Shown here in pieces: positions 1-52,458 of a DNA stretch of 53,826 nt. Origin of the DNA: a virus (lineage: Duplodnaviria > Heunggongvirae > Uroviricota > Caudoviricetes); the IMG/VR virus record IMGVR_UViG_2917855067_000007; one strand, 5' to 3'. The position numbers were made by a program, and so were the translations under genes. The notes beneath the pieces are model-generated. The model saw only the letters and a list, made by a program, of their open reading frames with translations, was not told the origin of the DNA and did no database searches. Every line of letters starts with the position of its first letter. The stretch's first letter is position 1.

Positions 1-270
1 TTAAAGACTGACCTGACCGATCCGGGCTTCGCCTGTGAACTTATCGCAAAGGCCAAGTACTTTGGCTTCTTCCAGAACGGCGGATATGTCTTCGCTGATA
101 TAGCTGAAAATATCTGGAATCCATAAAAGTGGCAGGCCGTTTATCTCACACTGACGGATCTGTAAATGCATCTGGAATGAAACATTCCTTGCGCGGTTGA
201 GTTTATGGAAGCACTCAAGGCTAAGATATTTTTCAGCACTATTAACAGCAATGGTATTCAAATCAGACAT
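1..270 (-). CDS. hypothetical protein, C-terminus cut by window edge
   Basis: ORF running off the window start; low-GC DNA (~36%); no recognisable domain. Confidence 0.3.
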   Translation of the reverse strand: MSDLNTIAVNSAEKYLSLECFHKLNRARNVSFQMHLQIRQCEINGLPLLWIPDIFSYISEDISAVLEEAKVLGLCDKFTGEARIGQVSL

Positions 271-357
271 ATATTTTCCTTACAGGGGCGTAATTACTCC
301 CCGTTAAAATACGGTTATAATTAAATGTTTTTCAGTTCTTATAAATCGATTATTGTT

Positions 358-765
358 TTAGTCGTCCCACATTTCATAGGGATCATAATCAACCATCTGC
401 ATTCGCATTTCATTAAAAATAATACTAATAATATCCCTGATATATTCAGCCAGTTCTTTTTCAATCCCCTTACTGATATCCTGACTTATCAGCCCGGCAG
501 TCAGGGAAAGCGCATGATAAATATTATCGACATTAAGAAATATAACCTCATCAGCGATTTTTATTTTACTCGACTGAATTGGGGGAATATCCCGCGACCG
601 TTTTTCAAATAAAACAACCAGATTTAATTGCAATAATCGACAATAAAGCCGCTGCTGCTTGATATCATTCATTGCAGGTAATGCATCCGCAAAAAATGAA
701 GCACCGTAAACCAGATCGTAAAAATGGCGGTCAACGTGAAACGGTGTGAGCATAATTTCAGACAT
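358..765 (-). CDS. hypothetical protein, 135 aa
   Basis: ORF in low-GC DNA; start overlaps upstream gene by 8 nt (operon-like); no recognisable domain. Confidence 0.4.
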   Translation of the reverse strand: MSEIMLTPFHVDRHFYDLVYGASFFADALPAMNDIKQQRLYCRLLQLNLVVLFEKRSRDIPPIQSSKIKIADEVIFLNVDNIYHALSLTAGLISQDISKGIEKELAEYIRDIISIIFNEMRMQMVDYDPYEMWDD

Positions 766-1183
766 GATCTACTCCCGCCTTAATACAAGGCTGTTTCAGA
801 TATCTGACAAGTAAATTAATCATGTCATGCAAAAGCCAGCGTAATTGTGTTTCAACGTCCATACGAAGGGAGCGACTAAGCAGCGCATCATTTAAGGCGG
901 TGCAATAGCCCGTCATGATCGTCGCGTCGATCCACTCATCAGGTACGCAGGGAGCAGGAATAGCAGTCGCGGTTAATTGCGCCTGGATATGCGATGGATA
1001 GTCTGTATCACAAAGAGATGAAAGAGAACGCAGGGCAAAAGCCAGACGTCCGCAAAGTGCGACGCGTTCAGTCTCGTCAACACAACTTTCATCCGTTAAC
1101 CGCGCGACAAAATGCCCGCACATCTCGCCAGCCTGAAAGAGATCCATAGACACTGGCAACGGTGAATTAAGCAGATTATGCAT
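758..1183 (-). CDS. hypothetical protein, 141 aa
   Basis: ORF overlapping both neighbours by 8 nt; Cys-rich; no recognisable domain. Confidence 0.4.
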   Translation of the reverse strand: MHNLLNSPLPVSMDLFQAGEMCGHFVARLTDESCVDETERVALCGRLAFALRSLSSLCDTDYPSHIQAQLTATAIPAPCVPDEWIDATIMTGYCTALNDALLSRSLRMDVETQLRWLLHDMINLLVRYLKQPCIKAGVDHV

Positions 1184-1424
1184 ACCGCGCCTCCGTTATC
1201 TGGTCTTTCAGGTCAGCAATTAAGCGGTTAAGCTCTTCCCGGCCATCGTCGTTCAGCGCGTCCAGTCCGTAGTCATAAGCGGCTAGAATAGCGACTTCCA
1301 TTTCACGGGAATCAATTTCAACCACTACTTTTGAACCCGGTTTAATAAAGGCTGGCGGATCGTAACAGTCATCGTGGAACGGGTTAAGCGCCGCCGCTTT
1401 ACGGTTGTCCAGTGGGTTAAACAT
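1176..1424 (-). CDS. hypothetical protein, ~82 aa
   Basis: ATG at 1422-1424 inside the longer ORF-track frame; follows the small gene at 1417-1620. Confidence 0.35.
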   Translation of the reverse strand: MFNPLDNRKAAALNPFHDDCYDPPAFIKPGSKVVVEIDSREMEVAILAAYDYGLDALNDDGREELNRLIADLKDQITEARYA

Positions 1425-1620
1425 GGCGCGCCTCCTGAACCGGCAGACAGCCAGCAAAGCAGAGGATAAAGCGACCGGCCAGCATGGAACGGGCTTCCTG
1501 TTCGCTGTACGCGGTGATTTGTTCGCGGTGTGGTTTGTCCTGCATGTCAGCCCTTGATACCGCAAGAAAGAGAAATACGCGATTTTTAGGGTGAGTTTGG
1601 TTACACTTCGGCTTAGCCAT
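1417..1620 (-). CDS. small regulatory protein, possibly Icd-like cell-division inhibitor of P4-like elements
   Basis: 67 aa ORF with ATG at 1618-1620, first gene of a minus-strand operon next to a divergent RHH gene; family assignment from memory only. Confidence 0.3.
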   Translation of the reverse strand: MAKPKCNQTHPKNRVFLFLAVSRADMQDKPHREQITAYSEQEARSMLAGRFILCFAGCLPVQEARHV

Positions 1621-1807
1621 AGCGTTAGTCCTGTTAACGTGTTGGTCAGAAGCCCGGTTAGTGTCCCCACACTGCCGGGCTTTACTTTACAGGTGTATGT
1701 CACCTTGCAAATCAATCCTACACGTATGGTGAAATACACTTCAAGTCTTTTTTTCTGTTTTTTTAGTTGCGTATACTGAAATACACCTATTCGAGTGGAG
1801 AACAGTA

Positions 1808-1993
1808 ATGGCAACAGGTGCGAAGAATGCAAAATCGCAAATGACCACCGTCAGAATCCCCCATGAGGTTATGGAGGATATAGAACAGTTAAAGGAAACT
1901 GGAGAAAGTACAGCCGGTTTCTTAGTAACTGCGGCAAAGGGTGAGATAAAGCGCCGCCAACGCCGTAAGAAACTGGACACGATAAAGGAATAA
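1808..1993 (+). CDS. ribbon-helix-helix (CopG/Arc-like) DNA-binding protein
   Basis: 61 aa, ATG at 1808 preceded by GGAGAA; basic C-terminus; divergent from the 1417-1620 operon. Confidence 0.45.
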   Translation: MATGAKNAKSQMTTVRIPHEVMEDIEQLKETGESTAGFLVTAAKGEIKRRQRRKKLDTIKE

Positions 1994-2164
1994 CCCCTTT
2001 TACGTCGTGTGGTTATGCTGGTAAGCATCGGTTGTATCCCGGTATAATTCATCGCGTAGAATCATCTTCCTGATAAACCCTCTCATCGTTTCTTGTTCGT
2101 TCCGGTGAGGGGGTTTTCTTTTATCTGGTCAACACTGTCAAAGCTGGCTGTACTGCAGCAGGTT

Positions 2165-3172
2165 TTAAACCAGCGTCACGGCGTTCTCATCGCTGGCCGC
2201 GTAAAGATAGCCATCCCCCAGCGCGTAACCTTCTTCACGTAAATAGCCATGCTCATAAACACCTCGTTGCGGGATATCCTCCGCGCGGTAGTGTTGGCTG
2301 TGTTTCAGCGTCAGGATCTGCAAATTTTTCAGCGTCGTAACAGCCAGGCGCTTACCCGGCATAAACGGCGGGATAAAGGCAAAACGACCGGCGACACTGC
2401 TTGTCAACATATCCCCCGCCGTCAGCGTCAGTGGTTGATCGGCCATGTTGAACAGTTTCAGGCGTTCGCGGGCGGCAAGCTGCGCGCCAACCATCACCAC
2501 AAGGCCCGGATCTTCGCGCTGACCTTCGGGGATTTTTGACGTGATGAGGCAATCAGCCAGATCGTGAACATCGGCAAAATCACCCCCTTTCCCCAGTGCG
2601 AAAGCATCAGAAATAATTTGTGAACCGTTATTGAATGTTTTTGCCAGCGAGTGCCAGCCAATATTGATATCTTCGCCGTTTTTATATTGTTCCGGGTTGG
2701 TATTTTCGGCAATCATCTTGCCGTTAAATCCAATACGGAGCATATCCCGCACCACGGCCTTCTTGAAAAAAATGATCATTTCATTACTGAAATTTTTCGC
2801 GTTTGCCATTACCGCCATTTCTTCATAAGTCAATGAGGCGCAGGAATCCGTTTCTGATAATAAAAAAGGTGTTCCGTTGGTTTTTAGTTTCTTATGAAAG
2901 CGACCTTCCTTTGCACGGCCTGTATAAAGGGAACCATCACCGATGGTGATCGTCGTGCCATCCGCACCGGTAATGTCCAGTAATGAAATATTATCAATCA
3001 GCCAGGACGAGCCTTTAACATCAAGCGTGGAACATCCCCATGCATCCGGAGATGCTTTTTCCGGCTGTGATATGGTGAAATACCCCGTATCTTCGTTTTT
3101 ATATTTAATATTAAAAGACTTAATCAGGTTTTCGTGATACTGCGTTAAATAATCTGGTGTTACATAAGACAT
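2165..3172 (-). CDS. P2-family (GpN-like) major capsid protein homolog
   Basis: 335 aa; conserved blocks GFNGK, GKGGDFADVHDLADC and EDPGLVVMVGAQLAA align to remembered P2 GpN motifs. Confidence 0.6.
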   Translation of the reverse strand: MSYVTPDYLTQYHENLIKSFNIKYKNEDTGYFTISQPEKASPDAWGCSTLDVKGSSWLIDNISLLDITGADGTTITIGDGSLYTGRAKEGRFHKKLKTNGTPFLLSETDSCASLTYEEMAVMANAKNFSNEMIIFFKKAVVRDMLRIGFNGKMIAENTNPEQYKNGEDINIGWHSLAKTFNNGSQIISDAFALGKGGDFADVHDLADCLITSKIPEGQREDPGLVVMVGAQLAARERLKLFNMADQPLTLTAGDMLTSSVAGRFAFIPPFMPGKRLAVTTLKNLQILTLKHSQHYRAEDIPQRGVYEHGYLREEGYALGDGYLYAASDENAVTLV

Positions 3173-3181
3173 AATTCTTCC

Positions 3182-4054
3182 TTAGTTGATATTTCTTTCT
3201 AATGTGAGTCGTTGCGCGCGCTGCTGGTGACGGATCGGCAACATATAATTTAAATATTCATCTGCACTCATCACCGTATGAATAAAGGCCATTTCAGAGC
3301 TGTAATAATCGCGTGATATTTCGGCGCGTTCCCGCTTATCTTCATTAAGAGGGTTAACAAAACGGGGATTAATGCTTCCTTCCGGGCGATATGTGCAGTT
3401 GTTCACCACCTTGTTAAGGGCAATCTCCAGTTTATCCATTTTCTGCCAGGCAAGGTCAGCACACTCAATTTCAGAAATCGCCTTTTTGAATGCCTTAGCA
3501 TCGAGGGATGACTTAGGCAGGGAACGGCGCAGATCGAGCAGTTCCACATCTTCCACGGCCAACAACACATCAATAACCGGCGCGAGCAATGCCAGAATGT
3601 TTTGTCTGATGGATAACTCTTCCTGCTGTGCCTTGACTTGATTTTTAATTGCTGCGTGATGCAGTCTGAATCTTTCATCTTCTAGTGATTTACGGGCCTG
3701 CTGTGCTTCTTTAATCGTCTGCGGCGCAGGAATTACAGCCGGGCTTGGCAGACGCTGCAATTCTGCTTCAAGTGCCGCCAGCTTTTCCCGTTCAGACTGG
3801 CAAAGTTCATGCCCTTTATTAACCAGTGTAAACAGTTCCTCTTTAGTCGCCGGAATGTCTACGCTTTCCCCGGAAATAGATTTATATTCGTGGGTAAGGT
3901 GCATCATTTTATTCAGGCGATAAAGTTCAATAACGCGCATTTCATACAAACCACGGTGACAACCGTCATAAGGCTGAATAAATGCCGTGTTATTAATGAC
4001 AGCAAGATCCGCATCACGATATACGCGATGGCTGATAATATCAGTAATGTTCAT
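3182..4054 (-). CDS. coiled-coil protein, putative capsid scaffold
   Basis: 290 aa immediately upstream of the capsid homolog; central helical region; no protease motif recognised, so GpO homology is not claimed. Confidence 0.35.
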   Translation of the reverse strand: MNITDIISHRVYRDADLAVINNTAFIQPYDGCHRGLYEMRVIELYRLNKMMHLTHEYKSISGESVDIPATKEELFTLVNKGHELCQSEREKLAALEAELQRLPSPAVIPAPQTIKEAQQARKSLEDERFRLHHAAIKNQVKAQQEELSIRQNILALLAPVIDVLLAVEDVELLDLRRSLPKSSLDAKAFKKAISEIECADLAWQKMDKLEIALNKVVNNCTYRPEGSINPRFVNPLNEDKRERAEISRDYYSSEMAFIHTVMSADEYLNYMLPIRHQQRAQRLTLERNIN

Positions 4055-4253
4055 TTAATTTTCCGTAAATTTTCGCCAGCAACAAATATATTAAACACTG
4101 CATAAACCGGCATTGCCTGGTATTTTGTAACCACTTAACCTAATACTGAATAAATACTGCCAACTCCCCATGCTACGAGTATTTACAACAAAAAGAATAC
4201 ACAAAATCCTTAGCATTCAAATAAATCATATTCATCTCTGAATAAAATCAGAT

Positions 4254-4493
4254 TTACACTTTGCGCTCTTTGATTTTGTTGTCGATCCAGTCGCTGATCT
4301 CACCCTCAACCCATGCGACAGAACGCGGGCCGGTTTTAATCGGCTTTGGAAAGACATTTGCATTGATATCTTTATAAATACTGGCGCGACACCGCCCCGT
4401 AAGCATCATAACTTCAGGCAGGCGGATCAATCTTTTTCCTTGGTTTAAAAGCTGCATTGCATCATTTCTCATATTCACACCCGCTATTAACAT
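4254..4493 (-). CDS. alpA: AlpA-family transcriptional regulator
   Basis: 79 aa; core LIRLPEVMMLTGRCRASIYKD...FPKPIK...GPRSVAWVEGEI matches the AlpA HTH family. Confidence 0.7.
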   Translation of the reverse strand: MLIAGVNMRNDAMQLLNQGKRLIRLPEVMMLTGRCRASIYKDINANVFPKPIKTGPRSVAWVEGEISDWIDNKIKERKV

Positions 4494-5042
4494 TCAAACG
4501 TTATGTAATATCTTTCTATATACAGACATTGACTTTATAGGATGCCTGTAGATTGGATGAAGTCATTGTTATTCACGCCATAAGTGCATGTCAAAAAGAT
4601 GTATGTGGGATGTGGGGCTTGACTTTTAGTTAAGTCAATTTAAGCCTCAGGAAGACTCTAGAAGCCTCTGAAAGGATTTATGGTTTGAGTGAAATCAATT
4701 AGCCAGATATAAAGACACTAAAAATCAAACAAACAACAACAAAAATGAAATAAAAATAAAACACAATAAAAACAGATTTTAGCAAAAAGTGCCAACTATA
4801 TAATGTTAATTCCTATAAATAAGATTTTTATAAATTAACACCATAAAAACAACAATCAAGAGCACAATTAATAATCAAAAAAAGAAATATTTCATATTAA
4901 TCAATAGATTAGTAATCTTGGTGTTTTTTATAAAATTTCCAAAATCATAATTCATTGAAAATGATAATAAAAAGTTTAAGCGTGGATGCTGAGTGTCCAC
5001 GCCTAACATCTAATTTAGCGGTATTCCCGTCTTAGACCTTCT

Positions 5043-6233
5043 CTAATCTTTTACCCTGCCACTCGCCAGCGATTCCATATAGTCGGCATACCATTGAAGC
5101 ATTTCCCGGCGTCCATCCAGATAGCGGGCATGATTATATGTGCCACGGATGGTATTTTTATCAACATGTGCAAGCTGGGTTTCGATCCATTCGGTGTTAT
5201 ACCCTTTCTCATACAAAATTGTGCTCATGGTATGTCGGAAACCATGCCCGCAAGCTTTGCCCTTATACCCGAGTCGCTTTATTAGCTGATTAATTGCTCC
5301 TTCACTCATTGGCTTTCGCGGGTCGTTCCGGCCCGGAAAAATGAAAGGATTGCGGCCCGACAACTCTTTTAATTGCCCGAGAATAACCATAGCCTGGCGA
5401 GAAAGCGGGACAACGTGCGGACGTCTTTTCTTCATTCGCTCTTTGGGGATCTCCCACAAGGCATTATCAAAATCAATCTCTGACCACGGGGCCGCGCGTA
5501 ATTCAACCGGACGTAACCCCACAAGAATAAGCAGACGCAGCCCCAAAATAACCTGAACGTTACTTTTTGCCGTCGCCAGCGTCTGGAAAAATTCGGGTAA
5601 CTCTTCGGCTTCCAGATGGGGGAAGTGCTCCCCTTCGTGTCCTTCCATAGCCACAGATAGATCAGGGGCGGGGTTATATTCTGCGCGGGCGGTAACGATC
5701 GCATACTTCCAGACCTCCCCGCACCACTGGCGAACCTTACGGGCCTTTTCAGTCGCTCCCCTATTCTCGATGCGTTTAAGCGTATTCAGCAAATCAAGGG
5801 GCTTTATTTCCGTGATGGGGCGTTTTCCAATCCAAGGGAATATGTCTTTACTGAATGCTTCCAGAATGTCCGAGGCGTACCCCTCAGACCATTTCTTCTG
5901 CCGTTCTGTATGCCACTCTCTGGCGATTTCTTCGAAGGTGTTTTTGATTTGCGCTTCGCGGTTCAATTTTTCTTCCCGCTTCGCTTCGTTCGGGTCGATC
6001 CCCCCAGCCATACCCCTTTTGGCCTCATCTCGTTTCGCCCTGGCATCAGCCAGGGTTACATCGGGATATACCCCCAGCGCCAACAGCTTTTCTTTTCCGG
6101 CTACCCGGTACTTTAAACGCCAGTACCGGGAACCATTGGGATTAACAAGCAGATAAAGCCCACCACCATCGGCCAGTTTATAGGGTTTTTCTTTCGGTTT
6201 GGCCGTATCGACCTGACGGGCATTTAGTTTCAT
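5043..6233 (-). CDS. int: tyrosine integrase, P4-type
   Basis: ATG at 6231-6233 (MKLNARQVDTAKPKEKPYKLADGGGLYLLV); C-terminal R/H/Y catalytic region (HGFRHT); 140 bp from the att repeat. Confidence 0.85.
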   Translation of the reverse strand: MKLNARQVDTAKPKEKPYKLADGGGLYLLVNPNGSRYWRLKYRVAGKEKLLALGVYPDVTLADARAKRDEAKRGMAGGIDPNEAKREEKLNREAQIKNTFEEIAREWHTERQKKWSEGYASDILEAFSKDIFPWIGKRPITEIKPLDLLNTLKRIENRGATEKARKVRQWCGEVWKYAIVTARAEYNPAPDLSVAMEGHEGEHFPHLEAEELPEFFQTLATAKSNVQVILGLRLLILVGLRPVELRAAPWSEIDFDNALWEIPKERMKKRRPHVVPLSRQAMVILGQLKELSGRNPFIFPGRNDPRKPMSEGAINQLIKRLGYKGKACGHGFRHTMSTILYEKGYNTEWIETQLAHVDKNTIRGTYNHARYLDGRREMLQWYADYMESLASGRVKD

Positions 6234-6395
6234 TTGGGGGTATCTCCAGTAGCCCACACAGCATATACCCCCGAATATCCCCCCAAAAGACGTGGATTTT
6301 AGGAGATATTGATAGACGTTAAAACACTATCGGGGGCGCTCAAAGCTAGAGTATATGCGGGTTTGTTGGATTTTAATAGACGGGAAAAGACGTTG

Positions 6396-6444
6396 AAATG
6401 GTGCCGATAATAGGAGTCGAACCTACGACCTTCGCATTACGAAT
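6396..6444. repeat. attL core: 49 bp copy of the thrW 3' end
   Basis: identical to 52380-52428 by direct comparison. Confidence 0.85.
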
Positions 6445-6825: not shown

Positions 6826-7155
6826 TTAGCGTTTTCTGATTTCAGTGATGTAGGTAATGGCAGCATGTTCAACAAAATTGGACACGTCGTCATAGGCTTC
6901 TTTACCGACGGGCGAATTGAATGCCGCAATAGCGTCTTCAAGCGAGTCGAACCACAGTTCGGAGAAACCGTCGACGGGGGAATCGGGATATTTTTCCCGA
7001 TCGATGGGGTTGAGTACATAACCTCTTAAGCCGGGGAGTCTGAGCGCTATCGCTGTATGTACCTCATCCCAGTATTTAACAAAATCGTCGAAGCTCTGTC
7101 CTTTTTTACGGGTAAGAAAGCCCACATGTTTGAAGCCGTTAGCAGGTGACATCAT
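6826..7155 (-). CDS. EthD-family protein
   Basis: 109 aa; EthD-like motifs; divergent from the LysR gene. Confidence 0.5.
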   Translation of the reverse strand: MMSPANGFKHVGFLTRKKGQSFDDFVKYWDEVHTAIALRLPGLRGYVLNPIDREKYPDSPVDGFSELWFDSLEDAIAAFNSPVGKEAYDDVSNFVEHAAITYITEIRKR

Positions 7156-7380: not shown

Positions 7381-8292
7381 ATGAGAAGAACAGATCATCT
7401 ACGTGGAATTACGGCTTTTATTGCCACAGCCCAGCAGGGGAGTTTTACGGCAGCAGCGGAAAAGCTGGGACTGACAAAGTCGGCCGTAGGAAAAAGCGTC
7501 AGTCGCCTGGAAGACCGCCTCGGGCTGAAGCTTTTTCAACGTTCCACCCGGCGGTTGAGCCTGACGCCGGATGGTGAGCGTTTTCTTACCAGCTGCCAGA
7601 GCGCAATAGATATCCTGGAGCAGGCAGAGGCGGAACTGACGTCACATACCTGCCAGCCATCCGGGCGCCTGCGGGTAGATTTACCCGCAGCCTTCGGACG
7701 ACAGCGCATCCTTCCTATCCTGCTTGATATCACCCGACGCTACCCCGAACTGGCATTGACCGTTACGTTCAGCGAGCGGTTCGTTGACCTGATTGATGAG
7801 GGGCTCGATCTTGTCGTTCGCATTGGTGAGCTGTCAGACAGCAGCGGACTGGTTGCCAGAAGGTTGACAACCCAGAAGCTGGTGATCTGCGCCTCTCCAG
7901 ATTATCTGTTCAACCACGGAGAGCCTGTCAGTATCGATGACCTGAATCACCATCAGTGCGTTGTCGGCTTTCGCCGTAACCAGCCTGTTTCGTGGTTGCT
8001 GAAAGAGGGGGGTGGTCAAATCAGCCGCTTTGTCCCTCCGCCGACCCATGAGTTTGCCGACGGCGACGCAATGCTCGCAGCTACCCTGGCTGGAGGGGGA
8101 TTGTCCCAACTCCCCCTCTGGTTGGTGGGCAGATATCTCGACGAGGGTAAATTGCGGGAAGTGCTGCCCGGACACTCCGGCGGGGAGATGCCTATCAGCG
8201 CGCTGTGGCCAAAAAGCCGCCAGCTACTCCCCAAAATCCGCTATGTAGTGGATACCCTGGTCAGAGCTGCGGAAGACGGCCTGCTTGATTAA
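7381..8292 (+). CDS. LysR-family transcriptional regulator
   Basis: 303 aa; N-terminal HTH (ITAFIATAQQGSFTAAAEKLGLTKSAVGKSVSRLE) and LysR substrate-binding domain. Confidence 0.85.
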   Translation: MRRTDHLRGITAFIATAQQGSFTAAAEKLGLTKSAVGKSVSRLEDRLGLKLFQRSTRRLSLTPDGERFLTSCQSAIDILEQAEAELTSHTCQPSGRLRVDLPAAFGRQRILPILLDITRRYPELALTVTFSERFVDLIDEGLDLVVRIGELSDSSGLVARRLTTQKLVICASPDYLFNHGEPVSIDDLNHHQCVVGFRRNQPVSWLLKEGGGQISRFVPPPTHEFADGDAMLAATLAGGGLSQLPLWLVGRYLDEGKLREVLPGHSGGEMPISALWPKSRQLLPKIRYVVDTLVRAAEDGLLD

Positions 8293-9402
8293 TTATTCCC
8301 TGCTATCGGACCAGAAGGGGTAATCCGTATAGCCTTTTTCATCTCCGCCATACATCGTTGCCCGGTTAACGTCATTCAACGGCCAGTCGTTAACCATACG
8401 TTCCACAAGATCCGGGTTCGCAATGTAAGGCCGACCAAAACCAATCAGGTCAGCCTTCCCCTCCTGGAGATACGCTTCGGCACGCTGCTTATCAAAGCCA
8501 CCGGCAATAATCAAAGGCCCGGAATAGGCTGCACGAAATTTTTCAATAAACCCGGCAGGGATGGCCTGTTCTCCCAGTGTTTGCTGGTCGCTCAGATGAA
8601 CATACGAGAGAGAACGGGCGCTGAGTTTATCTGCAAGCATCAGCCAGGTTTCTTCCTCGCCATCAAAAGGATGCATGTCAAACAGACGCCCGAAAGGAGC
8701 CAGACGTATACCTGTTTTACCTGAGCCGATGGCCGTAGAGATTGCGTCAGTCACTTCCAGAACAAAGCGCAGGCGATTGTCAGTATCCGCGCCACCGTAC
8801 TCATCCTGACGAGTATTCAGCCCACCATTAATAAACTGCTCAAGCAGATAGCCATTGGCGGCGTGGATCTCAACACCATCAAAGCCCGCACGGACAGCAT
8901 TTTTAGCGGCCTGAACGTAATCCTGCACCACGGTTTTAATCTCGGGGATCGACAGCGCACGGGGTTCCGATACCGGAACCGGACCGGGTTTGCCGTTTTC
9001 GTCGCGTGCGTAACAGGTGGAATTATTGGCTTTAACCGCTACCGAACTAACGGGGGCCTGCCCATTAGCCTGCAAACTTGTGTGAGAAATTCGGCCGACG
9101 TGCCAAAGCTGAATATAAATTTTTCCGCCAGCGTCGTGCACCGCTTTTGTAACTTTTCCCCATCCCTGCACCTGAGCATCGCTGTAGATTCCTGGAGTGA
9201 AAAGATAACCCTGTCCCTGGACGGAGATTTGCGATCCCTCCGTAATAATGAGCCCTGCGGATGCGCGCTGCTGATAATATTTTGCGGTCAGCCCATCTGG
9301 AGTATCGCCTGATATTGCCCGTGAACGGGTCATTGGTGCCATAACGACGCGATTTGCCAAATCGGTGTCACCGGCCTGAAATGGGGTAAATAATTTTTCC
9401 AT
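8293..9402 (-). CDS. NADH:flavin oxidoreductase, Old Yellow Enzyme family (NemA-like alkene reductase)
   Basis: ATG at 9400-9402 with AAGGAGA upstream; OYE TIM-barrel motifs. Confidence 0.85.
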   Translation of the reverse strand: MEKLFTPFQAGDTDLANRVVMAPMTRSRAISGDTPDGLTAKYYQQRASAGLIITEGSQISVQGQGYLFTPGIYSDAQVQGWGKVTKAVHDAGGKIYIQLWHVGRISHTSLQANGQAPVSSVAVKANNSTCYARDENGKPGPVPVSEPRALSIPEIKTVVQDYVQAAKNAVRAGFDGVEIHAANGYLLEQFINGGLNTRQDEYGGADTDNRLRFVLEVTDAISTAIGSGKTGIRLAPFGRLFDMHPFDGEEETWLMLADKLSARSLSYVHLSDQQTLGEQAIPAGFIEKFRAAYSGPLIIAGGFDKQRAEAYLQEGKADLIGFGRPYIANPDLVERMVNDWPLNDVNRATMYGGDEKGYTDYPFWSDSRE

Positions 9403-9782
9403 TTTTATCTCCTTTACTGAAGGAAATATGATGGTCCCAACGATGTAATAAAAAAACACTACTCTGGTCCGAACAGAGTAGACATAATTTCTACATTTAG
9501 TGTTCTCTCGGTATTAAGTCGTCATATTTTGGTTTTTAGGTGATGTCTCACGTAGAGATAAAGCCTGCCGTAAAATTGATGAAGACTCAGTATGTCCGCT
9601 TCTGGCACACAAGCGACATCCAAGCCTCTCCGGCCAGGGCATGAAGGGGCGCCAGTTCATAGACGGTGCAGTGATTCTGTCCAGTGCTGGCATTCCGCAA
9701 GCTGCAGCTGCGCGGCAAGCCTGAAACTTTACGCTCGATGCGCCGGTGAACACGGCCCGTAGCTGGCATCTTTACACATAAC

Positions 9783-9862
9783 CAGTACTGTAAAAGTCCC
9801 GTAATACCGTGTCGCCCGGACATTTTATGTACCGTTTGGCCGCTACCATTCAGTACTTTCAC
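9783..9862. repeat. ~80 bp direct repeat, copy 1
   Basis: near-identical to 10172-10251; begins with palindrome CAGTACTG and ends cagtact. Confidence 0.6.
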
Positions 9863-10171
9863 TGTTTTTATTCATTTTTTTCCCAGGAATCGCAGAAAAA
9901 ATCCCGCCACGCCTGTCTTATTTCGTCGATATCAGAGCAAAACACCCAAATATCGGCCATCTTCGCCAAACCTCGCACCCGGCATTCCAGAGTGCGAGAC
10001 ACGCAAAATAATCTATAATTATCAATGATTTACATGATTGCCACTCTAAGCATAAATCCATATAGCGGCGAAATAATTGCCCTGAAACAAAATTCGGTAT
10101 TCGGATGGATTTGGGGCCATCTGCCCGCCATATAGTTTTATAAGCTGATACATATACATTTCCTCATTATC

Positions 10172-10251
10172 AGTACTGTAAAAGTCCCGTAATACCGTGT
10201 CGCCCGGTCATTTTCAAACCACCGTTTGGCCGCTACCATTCAGTACTTTTC
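10172..10251. repeat. ~80 bp direct repeat, copy 2
   Basis: near-identical to 9783-9862. Confidence 0.6.
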
Positions 10252-10614
10252 GTCCTGCTGACAGATGTGCCATCGCAGCTGCGCGGCCAGTCGGAAATCT
10301 GCTGGCATACTATGCGCCCGGTGCGGTCGCAGAACTACTGGCAGGCCGTCCTTTCTTCATTTTCCCGCTACCTGGACACAAAGCGCTGTACGTCCAGTTT
10401 GGGGGCGAATTATGATTAGGCAGGCTCCGGCAGTGCTCCCGGCTCTGTCAAAACTTAGTGGCGTAAAGTCATGGAGGATCGGTGGGAGGAGATGCAAATC
10501 CTCTCATGCAAAAATGCGTAAAATCAGTAACGGCTGGAAATCATTCAATACTCGCACTATCGGAAGTTCGCCAGCCAGCCGCAGTATTCCGCCATGACAA
10601 GTTGCTGCGACTTT

Positions 10615-10908
10615 TTATGTTGAACGGATAAATACCCAGACCAGCAGACACGCCACCACCGGCACAGCAAAATCCATCAGGCTTGCTACATCCCACGCGC
10701 GTGGATCAAAACCGCCCCACCACGGCATGTTAATCCGCTTGCCATGCCCGAACATTTCAATCCAGCGATATTCTGCCTGGGTGTGTTCACGCGCAATGAA
10801 GAACGTACAGCCGGCTATCGCTCCGTAAACCCAGTTTCCGGTAAAAAGACCAACCAGTATCTGCGCAGCCACAGCACAAAGTGCATGAAGTAAGGGGCTT
10901 ATATCCAT
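10615..10908 (-). CDS. small integral membrane protein
   Basis: 97 aa, three hydrophobic segments; ATG at 10906-10908 with strong AGGAGG. Confidence 0.45.
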   Translation of the reverse strand: MDISPLLHALCAVAAQILVGLFTGNWVYGAIAGCTFFIAREHTQAEYRWIEMFGHGKRINMPWWGGFDPRAWDVASLMDFAVPVVACLLVWVFIRST

Positions 10909-10921
10909 TACTCCTCCTTTA

Positions 10922-11623
10922 TCAGATATCGCTTCGGGAAGTTGATAACAGCTTTAATTCTGACTCAAGTTCATCAACTCTTTCAGTCAGTTTCTGGATA
11001 TGGTGAATCAGTGGAACAACCAGACGTTCGTACATTACACCTTCGGCAACAAGGCCATTGCTGGAAATAGCTTCAGGAGCATCATCTTCGTTAGCTGGTC
11101 GCCAGTGTACAAACTGAGGGGCAATTTCTCCTACTTCCTCGGCAATCAATCCATAGAACCCCCAATCACGCCTGTCATTTTCGCATTGCGACCTGTACCA
11201 TACAGGGCGCATCTTGAGAATGAGATCGGCGTGCTCTGAATCTATCGTCTCTACTGAATGCTTATAGCGGATAGACGATGTTGACCGCAATACAGACGAA
11301 ATTGCGGGGTCAGGATTAAGATAAAGGTTTGCCGCAGCTGTAGTCGTAGCCAAATTCCATAAATAAAACGCTTCACGACCTGTCAGTGGATAAAAATCCC
11401 CGCCATAACGACCGCTTTCCAGATCATTCACTTCTACTTTATTTTTCAGCTTATTATCCACTTCAGTTTTTGTGTATCTGGTACTGATATCCTGCTTTGC
11501 ACTGTCCATATCAGTCTGAAGCGTTGATACTTTTCCGCTAATTGAGGAAATATCTTCCTTAGCTTTACTGACATCTCCCTTTAGCGTGGTGATATCTCCT
11601 GGAATTACTGTCGATGTAGCCAT
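10922..11623 (-). CDS. tail fibre protein with C-terminal intramolecular chaperone (S74-like) domain
   Basis: 233 aa; coiled-coil N-terminus; C-terminal GLIAEEVGEIAPQFV block. Confidence 0.6.
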   Translation of the reverse strand: MATSTVIPGDITTLKGDVSKAKEDISSISGKVSTLQTDMDSAKQDISTRYTKTEVDNKLKNKVEVNDLESGRYGGDFYPLTGREAFYLWNLATTTAAANLYLNPDPAISSVLRSTSSIRYKHSVETIDSEHADLILKMRPVWYRSQCENDRRDWGFYGLIAEEVGEIAPQFVHWRPANEDDAPEAISSNGLVAEGVMYERLVVPLIHHIQKLTERVDELESELKLLSTSRSDI

Positions 11624-23917: not shown

Positions 23918-24658
23918 TTAACTGGCGGTGACGGTGATTTCTGCAACCGCAGCAAACTCACCATTACCGGATACAACCGGAATGTTGACCTTGCCTGCAG
24001 CAACGCCGTTCACGGTGATGGTCATACCGCTGACCGACACGGTGGCTTTTGTTTTATCCGCAGACACCGCACGGAAGCTCTTGTCGGTTGCGCCTTCCGG
24101 CTGGAATGCCACGGTCAGCGTGGTGCTCTGCCCTTTCACTACGGAAGCACTGGCTGGCGTTACCGTCATGCCGGTGGCCGCCGTCACCGTGCTGCGATCT
24201 TCTGCCATCGACGGGCGTCCCACATTGGTGACCTTCACCGTGCGGGTAATCACTTCCTTCGCCGTCACCGCCTTACCGATACTGCTGACCCAGCCACGGA
24301 ACACATCGACCGTGCCGTTCGGGAAGCGGATTTTATAGGCACGGGTATCACCTTCATTAAACCACGCCAGCAGCGCCTGCTGCCCCTGCTCTCCGGGCAT
24401 CCACGCCAGCGTGAAGCTGGTATCTCCGGCTGATTTCTGCCCCTGCCCGGTGGCAGTCCAGTCCGCATCTTCATCATCGAGATAGCTGTCGTCATAGGAC
24501 TCAGCGGTCAGTTCGCCGGGCGTCAAGTCTTTAACTTTTGCCAGACGCGACCAGTCAACGTCTGAAAGCGGGTTCGCATAAGGGTCACCGTTCCCCTTAT
24601 AAACCCACAGTGTGGTCCCGGCACCTTTCACCGGCATTACTGGATTTGGTACAGGCAT
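23918..24658 (-). CDS. V: major tail protein V
   Basis: starts [22 protein letters not shown]; C-terminal Ig-like domain. Confidence 0.95.
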
Positions 24659-37114: not shown

Positions 37115-37316
37115 TTTGAGATTGTGGTGCTTTTTGTGGTAGTTACCCACTTACGCACTTTGTATTGCTATGCCAGCAGTTAGCTTCTACTGTAAAACTA
37201 TTCATGCAGCAAACCTGCACTTCACCACAAAATGGGATTCAATACCCACAACTCTATCTGCATCTCTACTCAGGCATCAGCCTTCTTCGTTATCGTATAC
37301 AGACAAGCTATGAATT

Positions 37317-37532
37317 TTAATCAGTAATAATGACATTTGCTGCTGCAGGACCTTTAGCACCACTCTCTACAGAGAAGGTAACCTTTTGGCCTTCAAATAA
37401 GGTTCGATAATTATCATTCTGAATTGCAGAAAAATGCACAAACACATCTTTACTACCATCAACAGGAGAAATAAAGCCAAAACCTTTATCAGCGTTAAAC
37501 CATTTTACTAAACCAGTCATTTTATTTGACAT
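37317..37532 (-). CDS. cold shock protein (CspA family)
   Basis: 71 aa [38 protein letters not shown]...; RNP motifs. Confidence 0.9.
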
Positions 37533-37774
37533 TCTACATTCCTTAACTTGAGCCTTTCGGCATAAATGATTTGTATAACAGAAACGACTTCGTACTTAAT
37601 TGGAGAGACTCAAAGAAGGAATAAGTGAATAACACCTGAAATGAGAACTGCTTTAGTAAACTACTTCGTATATCGTCTGTTCTTCAAACCGACGCAGCCA
37701 TTAACGCATAGTTGTACACTTGGAAGCAATGTTTATTTTAGACATCCAGCCACCTCCCCATTTAAAACACAAAA

Positions 37775-51006: not shown

Positions 51007-51328
51007 GGCCTGTCAGTTTCTCAAGATATCCAGACCTACCGCTACCAACTGGATACGAACAGGCCGCCTACAGGCAACACGCAAAGACCCCACTAAACCA
51101 AAATCTCCTTACCTCACAACGCGACAAGCCTGCATTGCGGCGCTTCAGTCTCCGCTGCATACTATCAAGGTGAGCGCGGGTGATGGCATAACAGAGGAAA
51201 GAAAATGTCACTCTTCCGCAGAAGTGAAATATGGTACGCCAGTTTCACATTGCCGAACGGTAAAAGATTTAAACAGTCTCTTGGAACAAAGGACAAAAGG
51301 CAGGCAACAGAGCTCCATGACAAGCTAA
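50978..51328 (+). CDS. xis: excisionase-like DNA-binding protein
   Basis: ATG at 50978 with AGAGG upstream; [29 protein letters not shown]; overlaps the int start, so the real 3' end is uncertain. Confidence 0.5.
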
Positions 51329-52368
51329 AGGCTGAAGCATGGCGGGTCAGCAAACTTGGTGAAATACCTGATATGACGTTCGAGGAAGCGTGTGTCAGGT
51401 GGCTTGAAGAGAAAGCACATAAAAAATCACTGGACGATGACAAAAGCCGGATCGGATTCTGGCTTCAACATTTCGCAGGGATGCAACTAAGAGACATTAC
51501 TGAATCAAAAATTTATTCAGCAATTCAGAAAATGACGAACCGGCGTCATGAGGAAAACTGGAAACTCAGGGCAGAAGCATGCAGAAAAAAAGGGAAACCT
51601 GTTCCAGAATACACGCCAAAACCAGCGTCCGTTGCAACGAAGGCAACGCATCTTTCATTTATAAAGGCCCTGCTAAGAGCCGCAGAGCGTGAATGGAAAA
51701 TGCTGGATAAGGCACCAATTATTAAAGTGCCTCAACCAAAGAATAAACGGATCCGCTGGCTGGAGCCTCATGAAGCACAAAGGCTGATTGATGAATGTCC
51801 GGAGCCATTAAAGTCTGTTGTTGAATTTGCACTGGCAACAGGTTTAAGACGCTCGAACATCATCAACCTTGAATGGCAACAAATAGACATGCAGCGCCGG
51901 GTGGCATGGATAAACCCGGAAGAGAGTAAATCAAACCGCGCAATTGGCGTTGCGCTGAATGATACTGCATGTCGCGTATTGAAAAAACAAATAGGGAATC
52001 ATCACCGTTGGGTATTTGTGTATAAGGAAAGCTGTACCAAACCAGACGGAACGAAAGCGCCAACAGTAAGGAAGATGCGGTATGACGCAAACACAGCCTG
52101 GAAAGCGGCGCTGAGACGAGCTGGTATTGATGATTTCAGATTTCACGACTTGAGACACACCTGGGCAAGTTGGCTGGTTCAAGCCGGAGTCCCGTTGTCA
52201 GTGTTACAGGAAATGGGTGGCTGGGAGTCTATCGAAATGGTTCGTCGATATGCTCACCTCGCGCCTAATCACCTTACCGAACACGCACGGCAAATAGACT
52301 CGATTCTGAACCCATCGGTCCCAAATTTGTCCCAGTCAAAAAATAAGGAAGGTACTAATGATGTGTAA
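51205..52368 (+). CDS. int: tyrosine integrase of the lambdoid prophage
   Basis: 387 aa; C-terminal catalytic R...[10 protein letters not shown]...Y; ends 15 bp from the tRNA 3' end. Confidence 0.9.
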
Positions 52369-52379
52369 CTTATTGATTT

Positions 52380-52428
52380 AAATGGTGCCGATAATAGGAG
52401 TCGAACCTACGACCTTCGCATTACGAAT
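52380..52428. repeat. attR core within thrW
   Basis: 49 bp identical to 6396-6444. Confidence 0.85.
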
Positions 52429-52458
52429 GCGCTGCTCTACCAACTGAGCTATATCGGC
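52383..52458 (-). tRNA. thrW: tRNA-Thr (anticodon CGU)
   Basis: reverse complement gccgatatagctcagttggtagagcagcgcattcgtaatgcgaaggtcgtaggttcgactcctattatcggcacca; cloverleaf with CGT anticodon and CCA end. Confidence 0.9.

Follow-up and report, generated by a model that had tools for sequence, protein, structure and literature searches.

The 53,826-nucleotide (nt) IMG/VR virus record IMGVR_UViG_2917855067_000007 (Caudoviricetes), the whole of which is referred to here as the window, carries a pair of direct repeats that an initial annotation of the sequence had described as two near-identical copies ~390 bp apart in a gene-poor segment. A repeat search of the window returned one block of 56 nt (9771–9826 and 10159–10214; 91% identity, spacing 388/390) and a second of 29 nt (9831–9859 and 10221–10249; 100% identity), which together form a single unit, split in the middle where the copies differ in length by 2 nt. 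Read directly, copy A runs from CAGTACTG at 9783 to the CAGTACT at 9852–9858, and copy B from CAGTACTG at 10171 to the CAGTACT at 10242–10248, in agreement with the ends given earlier; the similarity also reaches ~12 nt further left than had been described (9771–9782 versus 10159–10170). A profile built from all units collected matches the window exactly twice (E = 1.8e-23 and 7.7e-22, with the next hit at E = 3.8), so both searches bear out the two copies and their distance. The repeat pair is real, and chance cannot account for it.

A conserved gene between the repeats

On the minus strand, which is the sense strand of the module, a unit is followed by 17/18 nt carrying a ribosome-binding site (RBS), a small open reading frame (ORF), a spacer of ~190 nt and a second unit, meaning that copy B is the upstream and copy A the downstream unit (Table 1). 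The two arms of the unit (28 nt and 36 nt) are identical between the copies, every difference being confined to a 13-nt central linker. Across lineages the unit measures 75–79 bp; its ends read AAGTACTGAAT and ACAGTACT, with AGTACTG as a 7-bp terminal inverted sequence, and its centre varies between lineages. Each end of the unit further bears a palindromic hexamer, and a sub-repeat (GCGGCCAAACGGT / GCGACACGGT) lies within it.

The segment between the copies is not as poor in genes as had been thought, because a conserved minus-strand ORF of 35 codons, here called ORF35, had been missed. In an alignment of nine related loci or modules, the best-conserved part of the inter-repeat interval is 10046–10160, and its variation is concentrated at the third codon positions of the minus strand, which is what revealed the ORF. 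Pairwise Nei–Gojobori ratios of non-synonymous to synonymous substitution (dN/dS) among the 17 instances in the fetched loci range from 0.12 to 0.34, so that ORF35 encodes a protein and evolves under purifying selection. An ATG at 10159, in frame and two codons ahead of the start, is not conserved. The plus-strand ORFs that begin with GTG inside the repeats had been judged non-coding, and rightly so: their reading frames are not kept because the length of the linker varies by 2–3 nt. In every locus fetched the repeats bracket the small protein-coding gene on the other strand and are therefore not the free-standing site suggested before, and the units never flank any cargo other than ORF35.

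The ORF35 peptide is 34–40 aa long across lineages, rich in hydrophobic and aromatic residues and near-neutral rather than basic. Its hydrophobic runs comprise only 7–9 residues, and no stretch has transmembrane length. Searches of Pfam, NCBIfam (including its type I toxin models), PHROGs, PADLOC and PDB sequences gave no match, and only two relatives, both stand-alone proteins of 35–40 aa, were found among 1.84 billion representative proteins. The AlphaFold2 model is not confident (predicted local distance difference test score of 49), and neither RefSeq/PGAP nor PLSDB annotates the gene in any record inspected.

Two further observations concern the reading frame. In L018 (2926–3117) and L027 (128–319; L numbers denote related loci and contigs), an ATG within the unit (CTGAATGG/CTGAATGT) shares the reading frame of the small ORF, and gene callers accordingly report 63-aa products (P0001) from the Klebsiella plasmids and from L027, a permuted contig. 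As a coding start this ATG was rejected and treated as non-coding, its frame being lost in other loci. In addition, a related 34-codon gene (MLLVIELNGAELVYDRLAYRLLFSSKYIA.VWAY) lies unannotated in IncX1/IncF plasmids (L020–L023; e.g. L023 3001–3105) and also in nine RefSeq E. coli plasmids of 38–52 kb. It has its own conserved ~130-bp 5′ region and a terminator-like 3′ end, without AGTACT units; flanking direct repeats were sought in this lineage, and none were found beyond the 25-bp boundary elements described below.

Distribution of the module

The same module architecture is found in four diverged lineages from enterobacterial plasmids and metagenomes: the window type, together with L009, L013, L017 and L028; the more distant L026; the 3.6-kb ColRNAI plasmids of Klebsiella, whose units are only ~60% identical to those of the window; and, as the fourth, L024. 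The homologues elsewhere that the initial annotation had named as its own test thus exist, on plasmids, on metagenome contigs and in two E. coli genomes. Among them are three Pantoea agglomerans plasmids (88% identity over 9685–10381 and 100% over the first repeat), the metagenome contigs L009, L012, L013, L015, L016, L017 and L028, and the two E. coli genomes, out of 5,426 complete ones, that carry the module at the equivalent end of a prophage. Carriers include E. coli 19AR1321, plasmid pCB1C of P. agglomerans CB1 and plasmid 3 of K. pneumoniae INF231. The spacing of the copies across loci is 304–403 bp.

A tblastn search with the ORF returned 31 plasmid records and, among 50,697 phage genomes, no match to the ORF35 cassette. 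The exact unit core was found in one IMG/VR contig and, as an exact 21-mer, in one of 185,579 GTDB species representatives. Plasmids with the ORF35 family come from Escherichia, Klebsiella, Pantoea, Kosakonia, Citrobacter and Salmonella, and the wider contexts of the module on plasmids include ParA/ribbon–helix–helix, umuDC, psiA, ParB-like or StbA genes. Recurrence on plasmids, absence from phage genomes and rarity in E. coli all show that the module is of plasmid type and its presence in a prophage an exception. To judge from these comparisons, the module is typical of enterobacterial plasmids, both in regions beside par/umuDC/psiA genes and on small ColE1-type plasmids, and the cassette in the window is probably plasmid-derived.

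Other mobile DNA has also entered the cassette. The end of a Tn3-family transposon is inserted in the cassette spacer of L010/L011, and in L007, a Klebsiella IncF plasmid, a fragment of IS1 lies between two partial units (5670–5894). The cassette is thus a target of other mobile DNA.

Constraint on the repeat unit

Between diverged modules, the units are 88–94% identical, compared with 76–77% for the ORF at the nucleotide level, 44–67% for the leader, 58–62% for the spacer and 55–77% for the outer flanks. The units are the most constrained part of the module, and the repeat holds up as a genuine conserved element beyond what annotated genes explain. Of the arm substitutions that are specific to a locus, 14/28 are common to both copies of that locus, a pattern that indicates concerted evolution of the arms. 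The linker comes in two types, (G/T)NAAT-AAAAAT(G/A)A in upstream units and TA(C/T)AT-AAAAAT(G/T)(T/A) in downstream units, in all eight complete modules.

A structured RNA was considered as the reason for this constraint and was ruled out by the lack of a consensus fold, of covariation and of an Rfam match. RNAalifold on 11 units gave −4.3 kcal/mol with an unfavourable covariation term, single-sequence RNA-fold z-scores of the units reach only −0.9 to −2.2, and Rfam scans with gathering and E-value thresholds found nothing in the window region or in four related loci, antitoxin families included. The differences between copies comprise two transitions out of 15 and show no wobble-type bias. 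Hand readings for sigma-70, extended −10, sigma-54 and sigma-E promoters gave none that is valid across all lineages.

The unit bears partial resemblances, which serve as leads only, to what we take to be the LexA box, the KorB operator, a Xer/dif arm, the shufflon sfx site and the ArgR box. For instance, the units of L013, L014, L011 and L007 read TTTAGCGGCCAAA and presumably share 12 of the 13 positions of the IncP KorB operator, which we take to be TTTAGCSGCTAAA; the units of the window read GGTAGCGGCCAAA and presumably share 10 of the 13, in both cases as a lead only.

Recombination between the copies

That the two copies might recombine had been proposed before, and alleles found in nature show that they do. 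Compared with the window, L003, an IMG/VR record of the same prophage region, is missing exactly one unit, the ORF and the spacer, and the solo unit that it keeps has hybrid flanks, the left one from the upstream copy and the right one from the downstream copy. L014 relates to L013 in the same manner, as the deleted form, and L002, L006 and L008 are solo units on plasmids. L002 and L008 belong to the same locus type and have different linker types. Since solo units occur with either linker type, crossovers occur on either side of it, the outcome to be expected of homologous recombination.

Duplication or circularisation is indicated by two permuted contigs. L027 consists of a 388-bp monomer with an exact terminal overlap of 119 bp, and L029 of a 389-bp monomer with an exact terminal overlap of 141 bp, i.e. 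both are circular permutations with a period that matches the copy spacing of the window. The two are independent assemblies that differ by substitutions, and both contain the junction spacer–unit–leader–ORF; as the overlaps exceed the 77-bp unit, this junction must be present in real reads. Each contig thus stems either from a 388-bp circle or from an array in which the gene is present in tandem at least twice. Taken together, the 388 bp of unit, gene and spacer behave in nature as a discrete unit of loss and of duplication or circularisation.

Spacer, flanks and boundary elements

The spacer contains two hairpins and an A-rich tract (Table 1). The stem of hairpin 1 is maintained through different sequences in other loci. 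Hairpin 2 was considered as an antisense terminator after the downstream unit, an idea that was dropped as it pairs better on the sense strand, where its G–U pairs would not turn into C–A; the same asymmetry suggests that a sense transcript may run through the spacer. The motif GACG[AG]/CGACG is enriched in the spacers of L013 and L017 (e.g. L013 10210–10290) and in the Klebsiella plasmids, the enrichment of GACG[AG] in L013 and L017 being limited to the sense strand; the spacer of the window is not enriched. In the Klebsiella cassette, the spacer includes four tandem CGAACGTCGG repeats (L018 3127–3166).

Table 1. Features of the module and its surroundings in the window
Feature	Position	Strand	Remarks
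Attachment (att) repeat of attL type, 49-bp 3′ part of tRNA-Thr	6396–6444		Identical to 52380–52428
Degenerate TGGACAGAA..GTC(T)A boundary element	9660–9684	−	Homology to Pantoea plasmids starts just inside, at 9685
Degenerate leader copy after downstream unit, GGTTATGTGTAAAGATG (cf. GATAATGAGGAAATGTATATG)	9763–9783	−	Repeat extends to 9771
Downstream unit (copy A), 75 bp	9784–9858	−	Arms as in upstream unit; linker ACATAAAATGT, downstream type
A-rich tract (sense) directly 5′ of downstream unit	9859–9883	−	In all lineages
Hairpin 2, 12-bp stem	9884–9915	−	Three G–U pairs, on sense strand only; partly direct reading
Hairpin 1 (CTCGCAC...GTGCGAG, then GUUUGG on sense strand)	9972–9998	−	Just 3′ of ORF35
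ORF35, MYQLIKLYGGQMAPNPSEYRILFQGNYFAAIWIYA plus stop, 35 codons	10046–10153	−	Conserved small protein, no known family
Leader, 18 nt, with RBS GAGGA (10165–10161)	10154–10171	−	17–18 nt from unit end to ATG in all lineages
Upstream unit (copy B), 77 bp	10172–10248	−	Sense strand: AAGTACTGAATGGTAGCGGCCAAACGGT – linker GGTTTGAAAATGA – CCGGGCGACACGGTATTACGGGACTTTTACAGTACT
TGGACACAAAGCGCTGTACGTCCAG boundary element	10373–10397	+	Homology block with Pantoea plasmids ends here, at 10381

For 12–20 nt past the downstream copy, the sequence is still leader-like, and this degenerate copy can be read as what is left of the beginning of a second monomer. The boundary elements at either side of the module belong to a 25-bp element, TGGACAGAA(A/T)NACCTGAANGTCCA(G/A), often with GGAATTA ~8 nt after it, which punctuates co-oriented small genes in plasmid loci (six copies in L002, nine in L017 and five in L023); a literature search for this element gave no sequence match. 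Another short repeated module, CTGGCCGCGCAGCTGCAG..ATGCCAGCA, is present at 9704–9726 and 10275–10297 of the window and four times in L017 (2742–5469), and it precedes the upstream unit in double-unit and solo-unit loci alike.

The prophage setting

The 49-bp repeat at 6396–6444 and 52380–52428 is the 3′ part of a tRNA-Thr(CGU) gene (52383–52458) located beside the integrase gene (51205–52368). These repeats bound a lambdoid prophage, and the cassette lies inside it, at an end resembling the lambda b region, between tail-fibre genes and a set of cargo genes: EthD (6829–7155, minus strand), LysR (7381–8289, plus strand) and OYE/alkene reductase (8296–9405, minus strand). Lying between the att repeats, all three are cargo of the phage rather than genes of the host. 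The b-region character is reflected in the homology of 10457–10620 to lambda 24190–24318 (86%), and the equivalent DNA in E. coli 19AR1321 is annotated as a partial ‘capsid protein’ pseudogene. In its position between tail-fibre genes and att, beside cargo genes, the cassette resembles the morons and mosaic segments of the lambda b region; unlike these, it is absent from the 50,697 phage genomes and has its counterparts on plasmids.

Several neighbours deserve mention. Between the cassette and a tail-fibre chaperone-like gene with a Peptidase_S74 domain (10925–11623) lies a 97-aa ORF (10615–10908, minus strand) that has hydrophobic stretches and no Pfam match. Left of the att repeat, positions 1–6395 belong to another mobile element, a P4-like phage satellite that shares the tRNA-Thr att site in a tandem arrangement and has an integrase of its own (5043–6257, minus strand); in E. 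coli JNEC-KY203, which is 99.7% identical to this region, a P2-family capsid protein, a derepression protein and a helix–turn–helix regulator are annotated. Finally, a full-length cspA thermoregulator (Rfam RF01766; 155.9 bits) at 37301–37693 (minus strand) within the prophage implies that the latter carries a probable cold-shock protein gene.

A proposed amplifiable cassette and its alternatives

We tentatively favour, at a little short of an even chance, the view that the window shows the single-copy state of an amplifiable and deletable 388-bp cassette in which the unit is the 5′ control region of the gene. A plasmid-type module has found its way into the accessory end of a lambdoid prophage, where it would now represent the n = 1 state of a tandemly amplifiable array. 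Recombination between units would expand, contract or delete such an array, and homology-driven exchange would suffice for this, because crossovers fall either side of the linker. Expansion and contraction would always leave the last gene copy with a unit on either side and would keep the arms identical; the downstream unit would then be the head of the next, absent monomer, and the degenerate leader behind it fits a second monomer of which only this head is left. Given its fixed distance to the RBS and a conservation above that of the coding sequence, the unit most probably serves ORF35 as a 5′ control region, be it as promoter, as untranslated leader or as both.

The closest counterparts of such a cassette are amplifiable genes bounded by direct repeats, which change in number by unequal crossing-over, with the translocatable units of IS26 type as a mechanistic analogue. 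Shared features are that repeat and cargo are lost, duplicated and circularised and that solo repeats remain as scars. The module differs from them in that its repeat is a 77-bp non-coding sequence rather than an insertion sequence, that there is no transposase and that the cargo is always the same 35-codon gene.

Several observations weigh against an amplifiable cassette with a 5′ control region. The linker differs by position and not by locus in 8/8 complete modules, a pattern not predicted by simple concerted evolution, so that the two copies may have distinct roles. No reading of the unit as a sigma-70 promoter is valid in all lineages, a consensus scan finds none, and conservation over the whole length of 77 bp exceeds the usual need of a promoter plus leader. 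Moreover, these units are missing altogether from the IncX1/IncF lineage of the ORF, in which the 5′ region is a different one. Finally, no complete plasmid in PLSDB has more than two units, and arrays with n ≥ 2 are known only from two short metagenome-type contigs, which could instead be circles.

Among the alternatives, an arrangement akin to type I toxin–antitoxin (TA) systems is unlikely. Here, the upstream unit would form the leader of the peptide mRNA, while the downstream repeat would be transcribed in the opposite direction to yield an RNA complementary to that leader; read in this way, the repeats are predicted to provide 28 + 36 nt of perfect complementarity. The type I TA loci par of the Enterococcus plasmid pAD1 (Fst/RNA II) and dinQ-agrAB of E. 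coli are likewise built on direct repeats. They, too, are small autonomous modules on mobile elements that combine a peptide gene of ~30–35 codons with direct repeats of tens of nt, one of them in the mRNA leader. The ORF35 module is similarly compact and autonomous, being found on plasmids down to 3.6 kb as well as in the prophage; it encodes a peptide of 34–40 aa with many hydrophobic and aromatic residues, and its upstream copy stops 17–18 nt ahead of the start codon. Arms that are identical within a module and conserved over their whole length without an internal RNA fold can also be expected of an intermolecular pairing surface. However, in silico consensus scans of the region found no conserved antisense promoter or terminator, and the DNA outside the downstream unit is not conserved. 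Unlike in par and dinQ-agrAB, the gene lies between its repeats, which measure 77 bp, and its peptide has no transmembrane helix; nor is there any match in sequence, to Rfam antitoxins or to the type I toxin models of NCBIfam. The differences between copies lack the bias that tolerance of wobble pairs would leave, and in the tandem or circular forms it is a downstream-type unit that directly precedes the ORF.

We accord a similarly low probability to a more far-reaching reading, according to which the 388-bp segment would be a circularising and re-integrating micro-mobile element, with the unit as its dedicated site of recombination and expression, read by a putative host or plasmid factor, and the aromatic 35-aa peptide as a new kind of plasmid effector (toxin, exclusion or anti-defence factor).

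A related scheme, in which a putative recombinase would integrate and excise a 388-bp circle of unit and gene at solo units that serve as att- or attC-like sites, seems to us rather improbable. Empty sites in the form of solo units and circularly permuted contigs of 388/389 bp both exist, the eight two-unit loci all share the arrangement of upstream-type and downstream-type linkers, and several plasmid loci have a gene for a tyrosine or serine recombinase no more than a few kb away. The 75–79-bp unit with its terminal inverted AGTACT(G), a centre that varies between lineages and conservation over its whole length would likewise suit a recombination site. Solo units, on the other hand, have either linker type, even in one locus type (L002 versus L008), and no recombinase is consistently linked: none is found beside the module in the accessory region of the window or in the 3.6-kb Klebsiella plasmids. 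Integron cassettes and their attC sites offer the nearest parallel, being small single-ORF units with a site in the 57–141-bp class that has inverted-repeat ends and a variable centre, existing in circular and integrated forms and placing the ORF close to the preceding site. Yet, the ends of the unit do not resemble the core sites RYYYAAC/GTTRRRY, its crossover points are not fixed, there is no array of varied cassettes and no integron integrase (IntI) is annotated or called near any module. With neither core sites nor IntI and with an invariant cargo, identity with an integron cassette was rejected.

The units could, in principle, also be paired operators at which a putative DNA-binding protein recognises the AGTACT palindromes or the sub-repeat GCGGCCAAACGGT / GCGACACGGT, bridges the copies and loops out the gene, thereby silencing or insulating it. 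Whole-length conservation without an RNA fold, the hexamers at both unit ends with the internal sub-repeat, and the way in which unit centre and peptide sequence differ together between lineages are all compatible with this. Nevertheless, we hold it to be quite improbable: no candidate binding protein is consistently linked, the near-neutral peptide is itself a poor match for the role, and the copy spacing of 304–403 bp keeps no constant helical phase.

Lastly, a functionless relic—be it a local duplication that arose by chance within the junk-rich b region, an element like a miniature inverted-repeat transposable element (MITE) or a single-strand promoter of a plasmid leading region—is very improbable and largely refuted already, since, despite its location in a recombination-prone accessory region of a lambdoid prophage, the architecture is kept in four lineages with units that are better conserved than the gene. 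The MITE, or any multi-copy form of the small non-autonomous element that the initial annotation had envisaged, was rejected in view of only two copies in the window, occurrence in 2/5,426 E. coli genomes and the lack of a target-site duplication at the unit flanks despite the inverted AGTACTG ends. As for single-strand promoters (Frpo/ssi; Masai & Arai 1997, Samuel et al. 2024, PMC11541004), the related plasmid loci do resemble leading regions and have Frpo-like sequences elsewhere, and Frpo/ssi elements and the unit alike are non-coding repeats placed between small genes where plasmids also have psiA, ParB-like and umuDC genes. The unit, by contrast, has neither sequence similarity to them nor a long hairpin. 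Eight known or candidate Frpo/ssi sequences (Supplementary Table 2 of PMC11541004) gave no BLAST match in 9460–10900, with matches elsewhere in L004 and L017, and single-strand DNA folds of 9600–9870 and 10160–10430 contain no stable long hairpin and have the folding energy of shuffled sequence (z = −0.14, −0.12 and +0.74). Frpo/ssi identity was rejected on these grounds.

Concluding remarks

No description of the unit, boundary-element or peptide strings was found in the searchable literature, and we rate the cassette as a new variant of the repeat-bounded small-gene cassette. Annotation routinely overlooks small proteins along with their non-coding partners, and the ORF35 family is a case in point: it is conserved and under selection, and it moves between enterobacterial plasmids and into a prophage. 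Should the 388-bp segment prove to be a micro-mobile element, it would constitute a cassette system distinct from integrons and the first recorded jump of such a system from plasmid to prophage. Were the peptide to act as a toxin or in exclusion or anti-defence, the module would be a very compact one for plasmid maintenance or establishment, as well as a handy marker of gene flow from plasmids to phages. Even if ORF35 is merely an amplifiable small gene, it would provide a clean natural case of repeat-driven gain, loss and amplification.

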